Source: Escherichia coli
GTDB lineage: Bacteria; Pseudomonadota; Gammaproteobacteria; Enterobacterales; Enterobacteriaceae
DNA length: 34,162 nucleotides
Strand: one strand, 5' to 3'
Assembly: GCF_003334315.1 (NCBI RefSeq)
Contig: NZ_QOWR01000050.1
The stretch's first letter is position 1, and the number at the start of each line of letters is the position of its first letter. Of this stretch, positions 1 to 34,162 are shown one piece after another. The notes below the pieces were generated by a model. It was not told where the DNA came from. It saw nothing but the letters and a program-made list of their open reading frames with translations, and ran no database searches. Position numbers and translations under genes: made by a program.

Positions 1-81
1 AAGTCGCTGTCGTTCTCAAAATCGGTGGAGCTGCATGACAAAGTCATCGGGCATTATCTGAACATAAAACACTATCAATAA
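1..81 (+). CDS. insB: IS1 transposase InsB, C-terminal 26 codons (5'-partial; runs off window start)
   Basis: Frame 1 from base 1 translates KSLSFSKSVELHDKVIGHYLNIKHYQ then TAA at 79-81, the InsB C-terminus. Confidence 0.85.
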   Translation, partial: KSLSFSKSVELHDKVIGHYLNIKHYQ

Positions 82-96
82 GTTGGAGTCATTACC
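1..96 (+). mobile_element. IS1 insertion sequence, 3'-terminal 96 bp (insB 3' end plus right terminal inverted repeat); element continues beyond window start
   Basis: Bases 1-96 read AAGTCGCTGTCGTTCTCAAAATCGGTGGAGCTGCATGACAAAGTCATCGGGCATTATCTGAACATAAAACACTATCAATAAGTTGGAGTCATTACC, which matches the IS1 right end as I recall it, ending in the terminal repeat ...GGAGTCATTACC at 85-96. Confidence 0.9.
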
Positions 97-901
97 CAGG
101 CTGGTAACCCAATTGCTGATCGGTCAACTCCAGAATCTCATTGTCAGGCATATATCTCGCCATACTTTCAATCGTTTGTTCATCATTGCTATTAATAAGT
201 TGTTTGCGTAGGTTAGCTGAAATTCCTTTAAGCCTTGGGAGAGTTCGGATTATGGCAAGATCAAATGTCGCAATATCTCGTCCTTCAAATGCAGCAACGT
301 TGCCTTCATCCAGCATTTGCAATTCCTGCACTAACTCAGGAGAAGGCTTAGGGCGAAACAGCGCTTCTTTTTTCATCTGATTACAGACATTCCCTGCCAT
401 GCGAATATTGCTTCGCTTAAAAATTTCTTTCAGAGCATCTTCATCATTTATTAGACCCCAATAATATGCATCAGGATTTATTATCATCAGCGCTTTTTTG
501 ACATTTTCAGTGTCATGTTTGTCACTCGCACGGACCATGAATTCACTATTTGTCGAAGACGCAACAACAGGTGCAATTATGTCATTGATAAATATCCCAC
601 GCGCATTAATACTCCCCTTAATCGTAGACGGATTATCGTAATATGAGTCGATAAATACCAGTCCACTTGCATTTATCGAACCGGTAATTAACAGTGGTGA
701 ATCCGCAACTATATTCGTTGCCGTCACGTTACCGAGAATAACCCATGGATTAGAAAGAGAGAAAGTGGAAATATTACCTTTGACTGTCAAATTCCCAAGA
801 ACAATCAATTTTTGATTACTCTCTATATTACCTTCTACCACTAAATCGCCACGATGCACTTTCCAGTTCGATGCAGATAAACCGAAGGGGACAAGATTCA
901 C
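92..901 (-). pseudogene. IS1-truncated ORF encoding an unrecognised repeat-rich (possibly beta-solenoid-like) protein, in the position K-12 ydbD occupies downstream of ydbC; 269 codons as drawn from a GTG at 899-901
   Basis: The ORF reads from 901 down to 97, and its TAA stop (92-94) lies inside the IS1 terminal repeat, so the coding sequence is cut by the insertion. There is no in-frame ATG before codon ~122 and no convincing ribosome-binding site at the GTG. An out-of-frame signal-peptide-like mini-ORF with a good site lies upstream (see findings). I do not recognise the protein by sequence; the assignment is by synteny only. Confidence 0.5.
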
Positions 902-1100
902 GCTACTGTTGATAGCTTGTTCAACTTGTTGTTTATCTTCAGCGGTAGCCGCAGAAAAAATTGTTCAATATCAACTGCATTTGCAACACATCGAAGTTCC
1001 GCCTATACTGGAAGACTCAGCATAAACAGGGGAAGTAAACCTATCCAGCCGCAAATCCTGGCCTTAAACATATGCACTCCATGCCATTAAAAAAGAAACA

Positions 1101-1124
1101 AAAGGGAAATGCATCTTTCCCTTT
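1101..1124 (-). terminator. Rho-independent terminator downstream of ydbC
   Basis: Inverted repeat AAAGGGAAA (1101-1109) / TTTCCCTTT (1116-1124) with a 6-nt loop; on the minus strand the hairpin is followed by a U-rich run (from the A-run at about 1088-1100). Confidence 0.6.
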
Positions 1125-1134
1125 TGTATATTCG

Positions 1135-1995
1135 TTATTCTCGCGAAATACCATCCAACGTAGACAACACTTCCTCAGAAAGTTGCAATTTTTCAGCAGC
1201 CATATTCTCCCGTAAATGCGCAACCGAAGACGTCCCTGGGATCAGCAAAATATTCGGTGAACGCTGTAACAGCCACGCCAGCGCCACCTGCATTGGTGTT
1301 GCACCCAGGCTCGCAGCAACATCGGAAAGTGTGGACGATTGCAGCGGTGTAAAGCCCCCGAGCGGGAAGAACGGCACGTAGGCAATGCCATCGTGGGCCA
1401 AAGCATCAATCATTGCATCATCAGCACGGTGCGCGATGTTGTATTCGTTTTGCACACAGACAATTTCGGCAATCTTGCGCGCCTCTGCAACCTGCGTCGG
1501 TGTGACGTTGCTCAGGCCAATATGTTTTACCAGGCCTTGTTGTTGCATCTCTGCCAGCACGGTCAGGCTGGCCTCAATCGATCCTTCCGCTGGGCCATGA
1601 CCATCCCCCATCATAACGCGCAGGTTAACCACATCCAGCACGTCCAGCCCGAGATTACGTAGATTATCGTGCACCGCTTTTTGCAGCTCTGCCGGAGAAA
1701 ATGCGGGCAACCAGGATGCGTCCTCTCCACGCCGCGCACCAATTTTAGTGACAATTGTCAGGTCGTCAGAGTAAGGATAAAGCGCTTCGCGGATAATCTG
1801 ATTGGTGACGTGCGGACCATAAAAGTCGCTGGTATCAATATGATTGACGCCCAATGCCAGCGCCTCACGCAGCACGGTTATAGCGACGTGGCGATCTCGT
1901 GGGGGGCCAAAAACTCCAGGACCTGCCAGTTGCATCGCGCCATAACCAAGACGGTTAACGGATTTTGTACCGAGAGTAAATGTGTTGCTGCTCAT
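1135..1995 (-). CDS. ydbC: Aldo/keto reductase family oxidoreductase YdbC (286 aa)
   Basis: 286-aa ORF starting MSSNTFTLGTKSVNRLGYGAMQLAGPG, typical of the aldo-keto reductase family; same length and position relative to paaY as K-12 ydbC. Confidence 0.8.
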   Translation of the reverse strand: MSSNTFTLGTKSVNRLGYGAMQLAGPGVFGPPRDRHVAITVLREALALGVNHIDTSDFYGPHVTNQIIREALYPYSDDLTIVTKIGARRGEDASWLPAFSPAELQKAVHDNLRNLGLDVLDVVNLRVMMGDGHGPAEGSIEASLTVLAEMQQQGLVKHIGLSNVTPTQVAEARKIAEIVCVQNEYNIAHRADDAMIDALAHDGIAYVPFFPLGGFTPLQSSTLSDVAASLGATPMQVALAWLLQRSPNILLIPGTSSVAHLRENMAAEKLQLSEEVLSTLDGISRE

Positions 1996-2125
1996 CGCAC
2001 CCTGCCCTGTAATAAAACGGATTAAGAAAAATCAGTATAGAAACGAAAAGAGATAAATAATGCGAAGGTGTAAACAAGATTACTGGATGAGTTGCTCTGT
2101 TATCCTGAAAGACACCAAAACAAAA

Positions 2126-2149
2126 CGCGTCAAGCGCCGCATCCGGCAA
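2126..2149. repeat. REP-like (repetitive extragenic palindrome) fragment
   Basis: Minus-strand reading GCCGGATGCGGCGCTTGACGCG shares its first 13 nt with the REP consensus GCCGGATGCGGCG... as I recall it; intergenic location between convergent/tandem genes. Confidence 0.35.
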
Positions 2150-32522: not shown

Positions 32523-32561
32523 CCGCAGCACGTTCTTGCATACGACGTGACTGCGGTTTTT
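32523..32561 (+). terminator. Orphan rho-independent terminator just inside the prophage end
   Basis: CCGCAGCACGT (32523-32533) / ACGTG(A)CTGCGG (32545-32556) stem with one bulge, followed by T5. Confidence 0.55.
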
Positions 32562-32880
32562 CAACTATTCAGATACATCACTCCCATCACATTCATTCCT
32601 CCGCATCATAGGCATATAGGCTATATCACCTTGATATTTTTCTTCTTCAGATAAAAACTGTTATCTATGTATACTTTTAAACCCAATCCGTGTAGAGTCT
32701 CTGCATAAGATAGTTTGCAGTTGCCGCTTCAGCTTGCGCCATAAACCGCCTGATTTTTGCTGCCACCTGTTAGCATTCCTGTATACCTGAAACGACAATG
32801 TTTATCTACGAACTTTAAGAACACCCAAGATAAAAATTGTCAACTATATCATATATAACACATTACTAATTCGAGGCTAT

Positions 32881-32994
32881 ATGAACATCATACTGATAAT
32901 CACATCTCTCCTTATCATATTCAGCATTTTTAGTCATGCCCTAATAAAATTAGGGATTGGCATATCCAATAACCCAGACAAAACCGATGTATAA
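32881..32994 (+). CDS. Hypothetical 37-aa hydrophobic small protein (candidate single-pass membrane peptide)
   Basis: ATG at 32881 preceded by GAGG (32873-32876, 4-nt spacer); translates [37 protein letters not shown]; promoter-like TTGTCA…TATAAC upstream. No homology evidence; could be a chance ORF in AT-rich DNA. Confidence 0.2.
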
Positions 32995-33062
32995 GTCAAC
33001 ATATCCTGAATCAGACATACAATATCGCAATGAAAATCAATAATATTTTAAGGAATATCTTC

Positions 33063-33296
33063 ATGAAATCAAAAGACACCCTAAAGTGGTTCCCTGCGCA
33101 GCTTCCTGAAGTAAGAATTATCCTAGGGGATGCTGTAGTGGAAGTAGCAAAACAGGGAAGACCTATCAATACCAGAACATTGCTTGATTACATTGAAGGA
33201 AACATAAAGAAAAAATCATGGCTGGATAACAAAGAATTATTACAAACAGCGATATCAGTTCTTAAAGACAACCAAAATTTAAATGGTAAAATGTAA
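33063..33296 (+). CDS. ynaE: Prophage-encoded cold-shock-inducible small protein YnaE (YdfK paralogue family), 77 aa
   Basis: AAGGAA site 8 nt before the ATG at 33063; protein MKSKDTLKWFPAQLPEVRIILGDAVVEVAKQGRPINTRTL…; lies between the ttcA fragment and pinR as at the right end of K-12 Rac. The track start at 33030 lacks a ribosome-binding site. Confidence 0.7.
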   Translation: MKSKDTLKWFPAQLPEVRIILGDAVVEVAKQGRPINTRTLLDYIEGNIKKKSWLDNKELLQTAISVLKDNQNLNGKM

Positions 33297-33612
33297 TATA
33301 ATAAACTTACTTTTTTATCATTTTTCCACTTTAACAACATTTTGCTCCACTTTTCCACGACCAAACAACTTGAAATCTGGTTAAAATAACACGCAACACT
33401 ATTCTTCTTCCTTGAGTCCGCCCGGAACTCGAAAAACAAACCGAGTTAAAGCCATTTTTCACAAAATCGATTTTGGGTCTTACCAAAATTACGGGGTTGC
33501 ATACGCATTCGTTTATTTTCGAACGTGTACATACAAATATGCACAAAAATAATCATAATTATTTTCTGAGATGCATTATGATATGAACACCAATTTCGTA
33601 TAGAGTCTCACT

Positions 33613-33958
33613 ATGTCTCAAATTTTTGCTTACTGTCGGATATCAACGCTGGATCAGACCACCGAAAATCAACGCCGGGAAATCGAAAGTGCAGGTTTTA
33701 AAATCAAACCTCAGCAAATAATCGAAGAACACATTAGTGGCTCAGCAGCAACCAGTGAGCGTCCTGGTTTTAACCGGTTGCTTGCTCGCCTGAAATGTGG
33801 TGATCAATTGATTGTGACAAAACTGGATCGCCTTGGTTGTAATGCAATGGATATCAGGAAAACAGTGGAACAACTGACCGAAACAGGTATCAGAGTGCAT
33901 TGCTTAGCATTGGGGGGCATTGACCTGACCAGTCCAACAGGAAAAATGATATGATGCA
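33613..33958 (+). pseudogene. pinR: Serine recombinase / DNA invertase PinR, N-terminal ~113 codons only, interrupted by IS1
   Basis: [25 protein letters not shown]… carries the resolvase/invertase catalytic Ser motif (Y-x-R-x-S-x-x-x-Q). The ORF stops at 33952-33954, 4 nt before the IS1 left end; the intact family is ~190-200 aa with a C-terminal helix-turn-helix. Confidence 0.8.
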
Positions 33959-34162
33959 GGTGATGCTGCCAACTTACTGATTTAGTGTATGATGGTGTTT
34001 TTGAGGTGCTCCAGTGGCTTCTGTTTCTATCAGCTGTCCCTCCTGTTCAGCTACTGACGGGGTGGTGCGTAACGGCAAAAGCACCGCCGGACATCAGCGC
34101 TATCTCTGCTCTCACTGCCGTAAAACATGGCAACTGCAGTTCACTTACACCGCTTCTCAACC
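33959..34162 (+). mobile_element. IS1 insertion sequence, 5'-terminal 204 bp (left inverted repeat plus insA 5' part); element continues beyond window end
   Basis: GGTGATGCTGCCAACTTACTGATTTAGTGTATGATGGTGTTTTTGAGGTGCTCCAGTGGCTTCTGTTTCTATCAGC… matches the IS1 left end as I recall it; same orientation as the IS1 fragment at 1-96. Confidence 0.9.
34014..34162 (+). CDS. insA: IS1 protein InsA, N-terminal 49 codons (3'-partial; GTG start)
   Basis: GTG at 34014 then [48 protein letters not shown]…, the zinc-finger N-terminus of InsA. Confidence 0.85.

Follow-up and report, generated by a model that had tools for sequence, protein, structure and literature searches.

Does a block of genes that lies between two direct repeats of the insertion sequence (IS) IS1 constitute a mobile or amplifiable unit, or is it ordinary chromosome with an unrelated insertion at either end? 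This question is raised by a stretch of 34,162 nucleotides of Escherichia coli DNA (contig NZ_QOWR01000050.1), hereafter called the window, which both begins and ends within IS1. An earlier interpretation made from the letters alone (the sequence-only reading) saw in it the architecture of an IS1 composite transposon such as Tn9, or else a circular molecule of about 34.6 kb with a single IS1. According to our analysis the bracketing is most likely explained best by a draft contig that ends in collapsed IS1 repeats, and we regard it as very probable that the window is a segment of native chromosome with an unrelated IS1 copy at either end.

The two ends were compared by BLAST with the chromosome of E. 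coli HS30-1, in which a 768-bp copy annotated as IS1A served as the reference element. The left end (window 1–96, ending ...GGAGTCATTACC) is identical to IS1A positions 673–768 (96/96, +/+), and the right end (window 33959–34162, opening GGTGATGCTGCC) is identical to IS1A positions 1–204 (204/204, +/+); exact matches of 96 and 204 bp are not due to chance. The left fragment comprises, on the plus strand, the 3' end of insB with the stop codon TAA at 79–81 and the right terminal inverted repeat, which extends to position 96. The right one, also on the plus strand, comprises the left terminal inverted repeat and the 5' part of insA, with the start codon at 34014. Thus, the terminal sequences match IS1 exactly, including the inverted repeats of ~23 bp and the coding ends of insA (5') and insB (3'), and in the contig of a relative the right copy yields gene calls for InsA (PF03811, PF12759) and DDE_Tnp_IS1 (PF03400). 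The two fragments are in direct orientation, and in this respect the sequence-only reading, which had placed the last 96 bp of IS1 at the left and the first 204 bp at the right, both on the plus strand, was accurate to the base.

The DNA between the two fragments (97–33958, 33,862 bp) is colinear with the HS30-1 chromosome at 99.96% identity, with 12 single-nucleotide polymorphisms and one 2-bp indel, and window 97–34162, with the right IS1 fragment included, aligns to HS30-1 as one piece. The interior aligns equally well to the ST12468 chromosome (99.95–99.96% identity across the two genomes). The gene names, taken from the annotation of the HS30-1 record and mapped by colinearity, give the order ydbD', pdxI, paaY–paaA, paaZ, tynA, feaB, feaR, ydbL, ynbE, ydbH, ldhA, hslJ, ydbJ, pfo/nifJ, ompN, uspF, ynaM, ydfK and a truncated pin, which bears out the coordinates and the gene list of the earlier interpretation. 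The two genes interrupted by IS1, which that interpretation had left unnamed, are ydbD at the left and a pinR-type recombinase gene at the right. The native synteny is directly observed in both chromosomes, and the block sits in its ancestral E. coli chromosomal context, with the native gene order. Since the cargo as well as the genes cut by the IS1 copies continue this native order, we conclude that the block did not arrive by transposition.

Why, then, does the sequence stop within IS1 on both sides? The Logan assembly of run SRR1122540 includes a contig of 33,916 bp (SRR1122540_119, listed for 4 samples), of which 10.8 kb are readable and 100% identical to window 70–10901. Its length equals 33,862 + 27 + 27 bp, hence on either side the SRR1122540 contig reaches 27 bp into IS1 before it breaks off, and contigs of relatives end inside the right IS1 after 28, 29, 90 and 667 bp. 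Genomes of the HS30-1 type contain at least 40 IS1 copies in 4.4 Mb, which corresponds to a mean spacing of at most ~110 kb, and the median number of IS1 places per genome among complete E. coli genomes is 10. IS elements are a recognised cause of fragmentation of short-read assemblies (PMC12828178), and in such an IS1-rich genome many contigs run from one IS1 to another, half of the pairs being direct. The breaks of the independent assembly at both junctions, the relatives' contigs that stop in the right IS1 and the presence of at least 40 IS1 copies together suggest that the bracketing most likely shows where a short-read assembly broke off. Dense IS1 in some lineages is also illustrated by strain EH10-18-47 (NZ_CP063499.1, 1238104–1241881), which carries another IS1A inside the ldhA–pfo stretch.

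Do the two IS1 copies share a history? At the right, IS1 cuts a pinR-type serine recombinase gene of a Rac-like prophage, of which the 5' part remains in the window (33613–33958, plus strand, ~115 of 196 codons by comparison with the intact pinR of ST12468). Among complete-genome records, 19 have the resulting pin::IS1 junction as a single piece, and several drafts carry it too. In HS30-1 the right IS1 is a 768-bp element with the left flank ...GATGATGCA and the right flank GGCTTTAAA..., and between these two flanks there is no target-site duplication. Beyond the element, a gene for the small subunit of a prophage terminase directly adjoins (HS30-1 locus 39038–39860); at the same place ST12468 has an intact pinR-tfaR-stfR-lom-gpJ array (ST12468 locus 39063–48001). 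Because the target duplication is missing and the truncated pin is directly joined to the terminase gene in complete relatives, the right IS1 appears to be associated with a deletion. It is an old, clade-wide copy that probably marks an IS1-associated deletion inside the Rac-like prophage.

Nine bases from this junction, the window has a derived 2-bp insertion of AT (33949–33950) that creates a stop codon at 33952–33954. It is missing from intact pinR and from all complete genomes, and is common to two NCBI drafts (GCA_004380855.1 and GCA_958326205.1) and two Logan contigs, which are the closest relatives of the window; as an observation in its own right, the AT insertion is a handy marker of the sub-lineage. 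The contigs of these closest relatives run 74.7 and 85.6 kb from the right IS1 and so exceed the 33.9-kb block, which suggests that these relatives have no repeat at the position of the window's left junction.

At the left, IS1 interrupts ydbD, which encodes a bactofilin with DUF2773 and whose proximal (N-terminal) part is retained on the minus strand at 97–1071, according to the HS30-1 annotation and the list of open reading frames (ORFs). The longest ORF in the cut gene spans 92–901 and its stop codon falls inside IS1. HS30-1 carries the corresponding empty site (...CCCAGAACAA|CAGGCTGGTAACCC). The junction of IS1 with CAGGCTGGT was found as a single piece in 0 of 5,426 complete genomes, in which all the matches were two-piece ones that represent IS1 elsewhere in ydbD. 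The IS1-truncated ydbD product of 269 aa is recorded in only two Logan contigs, and the uninterrupted ydbD ORF of 711 aa occurs in 1,382 blocks of the gene-position index. The left junction therefore differs in age from the right one. It is recent and private to this clone, and the rarity of the left junction together with the clade-wide spread of the right one indicates that the two IS1 copies came by separate events at different times.

If the left copy is a simple insertion, the 9 bp that adjoin it in the window (CAGGCTGGT, 97–105) are the predicted target-site duplication, the second copy of which would lie outside the window, and ...CCCAGAACAACAGGCTGGT|GGTGATGCTGCC would be the expected outer flank. 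The neighbourhood of this site is decaying. The ydbD gene is frameshifted near its 5' end (window 901–1071; HS30-1 locus 3476–3676), so that it was a pseudogene of the lineage before any IS1 hit, and in the HS30-1 lineage ynbA–ynbC are fused by a deletion (HS30-1 locus 2012–3490), with a 554-aa product in relatives.

ydbD has also received IS1 on other occasions. In ST12468, a 768-bp IS1 with a clean 9-bp duplication, GTAGCGCAA, lies ~90 bp from the window's site (ST12468 locus 4680–5456). Three draft contigs have IS1 ends (at contig positions 1–60, 1–40 and 1–40) at three further places within ~40 bp of that site, which makes four independent IS1 junctions inside ~40 bp when the window's own is counted. 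Two-piece spans imply at least 8 further same-orientation IS1 positions in ydbD among the complete genomes. The G+C content of ydbD is 39–45%, as compared with 50–57% in its neighbours, and this AT-richness agrees with the targets that IS1 is known to prefer, which are AT-rich. Taken together, ydbD appears to be a hot spot for IS1, and a search of the literature for ydbD together with insertion sequences returned nothing relevant. Another element has also reached the gene: in GCA_000304255.1 (AMSK01000045.1, 1–400) the end of an IS26 (...TTTGCAACAGTGCC) and ~300 bp of unidentified DNA adjoin ydbD at GTGAACCGC, a point ~30 bp away from where IS1 sits in the window, and this junction may be the border of a resistance region that has entered the gene. 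The same contig, which also lists 4 samples, was considered as the distal partner of the left IS1 and rejected, as it has intact ynbA-B-C and thus belongs to another lineage than HS30-1, and its element is an IS26 rather than an IS1.

Could the direct IS1 pair have made the block a transposing or amplifying unit in this clone? The arrangement itself invites the idea, as two direct copies flank the segment, pairs of hyperactive IS1 can, under laboratory conditions, mobilise as much as 41 kb of chromosome (PMC12065110), and IS1-flanked units can amplify or circularise by recA-dependent recombination (PMC7986276). The general statement of the sequence-only reading that recombination of direct IS1 repeats can delete, amplify or circularise the intervening DNA is thus well established (PMC7986276, PMC12065110). 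At this locus, however, the block is found in native synteny in HS30-1 and ST12468 rather than inserted as a whole unit into foreign surroundings, its two junctions differ in age, the natural composite transposons known so far typically measure less than 10 kb (PMC12065110), and 4 samples have the identical 33,916-bp contig on record. Of the 5,426 complete genomes, 5,413 have the ldhA–pfo core, at 5,417 places (4 extra), and the block is single-copy in E. coli: apart from mislabelled chromosome fragments these 5,413 genomes show no second copy, and none lies on a true plasmid. A search of 72,556 plasmid records with the window's opening 20 kb and closing 14 kb likewise revealed no true plasmid with the E. 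coli block, the hits being chromosome-sized records or chromosome fragments filed as plasmids. Two such records, CP054253.1 (252 kb) and NZ_CP141085.1 (385 kb), carry ydbL–uspF. CP054253.1, the only plasmid-labelled hit that was inspected (NZ_CP141085.1 was not), shows the chromosomal order azoR...fnr and no mobility typing, and seems to be a piece of chromosome filed under the wrong label; the hits in Klebsiella and Salmonella plasmids, not inspected either, are only 75–80% identical. We therefore consider it very improbable that the pair and the DNA it encloses form an active Tn9-like transposon, or else a unit able to amplify, and have moved or altered in copy number in this clone, and give still less credence to the notion that the paa-tynA-ldhA-pfo-ompN segment has actually been amplified, excised as a circle or transposed, i.e. 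that it is a natural 34-kb IS1 composite element. What stands of the composite architecture proposed earlier is the direct bracketing of 33.9 kb; its interpretation as a Tn9-like transposon does not, in view of the native synteny, the unequal ages, the single-copy state and the absence from true plasmids.

The proposal of a ~34.6-kb circle with one IS1, of which the fragments would be the two ends, is formally compatible with the sequence, as the 96 and 204 bp come from separate parts of IS1 and share one strand, and a contig joined at both ends to a collapsed IS1 node looks like a loop in the assembly graph. However, all the genes annotated for the block in HS30-1 belong to the chromosome, to metabolism or to a prophage remnant, and none serves replication or partition, so that such a circle could not be maintained, nor could it, if derived by recombination, be the main form in a culture or dominate an assembly. 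Moreover, pin::IS1 is chromosomal in the complete relatives, with prophage DNA beyond it. A circle that gained its IS1 by insertion was rejected, as the 9-bp flanks are unlike (TATGATGCA as against CAGGCTGGT) and ydbD does not adjoin pin. Given the native chromosomal synteny and these differing flanks, the circle finds no support and we regard it as extremely improbable. A different possibility concerns the left border alone, where IS1 may mark an IS1-mediated rearrangement (an adjacent deletion, an inversion or a recombination with another IS1) with DNA other than the distal half of ydbD beyond it. The products predicted for a simple insertion are unrecorded, even though a great many relatives have the distal ydbD protein sequence unchanged; in this lineage the right IS1, too, is associated with a deletion, and at least 40 IS1 copies offer many partners for recombination. 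On the other hand, the look-ups hinge on an exact gene call and contig edge and are a weak negative, and the fully readable IS1 insertion in ydbD, that of ST12468, is simple and has a 9-bp duplication. We regard a rearrangement at the left as rather unlikely, and it is a variant of our main explanation, since the block would still be native chromosome with a breakpoint as one of its borders.

We favour, then, two unrelated IS1 copies in a fragmented assembly, and the following course of events would account for the data. The window would be a contig, or a contig-sized piece, of a short-read draft of an IS1-rich clone identical to that of SRR1122540, and the assembler would have been unable to pass a repeat present in dozens of copies, which would leave both ends in IS1. 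The right IS1 is the older one, clade-wide, truncating the pinR-type gene with an adjoining deletion in the prophage, and the left junction arose recently, as a lineage-private event, in the AT-rich ydbD pseudogene. The DNA between the copies is native chromosome and was not delivered by transposition. The left copy is presumably full length and a simple insertion, and the IS1 pair seems to have done nothing so far. In principle, RecA recombination between the direct copies could delete or duplicate the 33.9 kb, which is a generic property of such repeats and not specific to this locus; we found no evidence for recombination between these two IS1 copies.

Several points weigh against this explanation. 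That the window is a whole contig is inferred. The window covers 300 of the 768 bp of IS1 (96 + 204), so that in the source genome both copies are only presumed to be full length, and no sequence beyond the left IS1 was retrieved, so that a deletion or an inversion may lie there. An exact look-up of the products predicted for ydbD followed by the 9-bp duplication and the left end of IS1 (edge-partial ORFs with 22–33 bp of IS1, plus a version with a TTG start) returned none on record, and a 428-aa product with an ATG start, which would also catch an 8- or 10-bp duplication, matched only other strains with different junctions; these look-ups are a weak negative, as they depend on a guessed start of the gene caller and a guessed contig edge. 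The sequence-only reading had itself stated that two ordinary, independent insertions with the remaining gene halves outside each IS1 would reduce the bracket to unrelated events; for the right copy this is essentially what was found, and for the left copy it is the empty sites in close relatives that point the same way.

How does the pair compare with known IS1 systems? It is closest to ordinary chromosomal insertions of IS1 (IS1A) in IS1-rich E. coli and Shigella, with which it shares the exact IS1A ends, contigs that stop inside the element, and junctions of which one lies in an AT-rich dispensable pseudogene and the other in a prophage remnant; there is no difference of substance, the window's exact IS1|ydbD junction being absent from all the complete genomes mentioned above. 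Tn9 (IS1-cat-IS1) likewise has two direct IS1 copies flanking a segment, but its cargo is ~1 kb and it is found at many sites, in plasmids and phages, with 9-bp duplications, whereas the window has 33.9 kb of native chromosome and no sign of movement. In the r-determinant of R100.1, a resistance region, direct IS1 repeats are the substrate for recA-dependent excision of a circle that carries one IS1 (PMC7986276). This r-determinant (R100.1/NR1) resembles the window in having direct IS1 repeats tens of kb apart as a potential substrate for recA-dependent circle formation (PMC7986276), but it is plasmid-borne and its excision as a circle has been observed, while the block in the window has no selectable cargo and gives no evidence of circles or extra copies. 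Finally, composite transposons derived from IS1 have been described in the laboratory, with 7.5 kb and 41 kb of chromosomal DNA as cargo (Nucleic Acids Res 2025, PMC12065110). There too, two IS1 insertions around chromosomal genes form a potential composite element, but those elements involve an engineered hyperactive IS1, inverted pairs and four loci each, in contrast to the wild-type IS1, the direct pair and the single locus of the window. The feature is thus of an already known kind, and the composite interpretation holds only in a trivial structural sense.

The remaining genes of the block, named after the HS30-1 annotation, are arranged as follows. On the minus strand, pdxI (ydbC), paaY, paaX and paaK–paaA occupy 1135–13361. 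They are followed at 13646–20910 by paaZ (plus), tynA (plus), feaB (minus) and feaR (plus), and at 21082–32103 by ydbL, ynbE and ydbH (minus), ldhA and hslJ (plus), ydbJ (minus), and pfo/nifJ, ompN and uspF (plus). The small RNA MicC is encoded on the minus strand at 30050–30170 (Rfam RF00121, 125 bits), between pfo and ompN, as expected there. The gap between pdxI (ydbC) and paaY is just 231 bp (window 1996–2226), and the autotransporter gene or pseudogene ydbA/bigA, which lies between pdxI and paaY in other strains, is absent from this lineage.

As draft contigs end in IS fragments by construction, an IS-bracketed block needs the support of flanking sequence, read depth or a second location before it is called a composite transposon. 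For the biology of this lineage the weight of the bracket is small, since IS1 is its most abundant repeat and direct pairs tens of kb apart are to be expected. If the pair recombined, the outcome would be the loss or the duplication of phenylacetate and phenylethylamine catabolism together with ldhA, pfo and ompN, i.e. a known type of IS-mediated structural variation.

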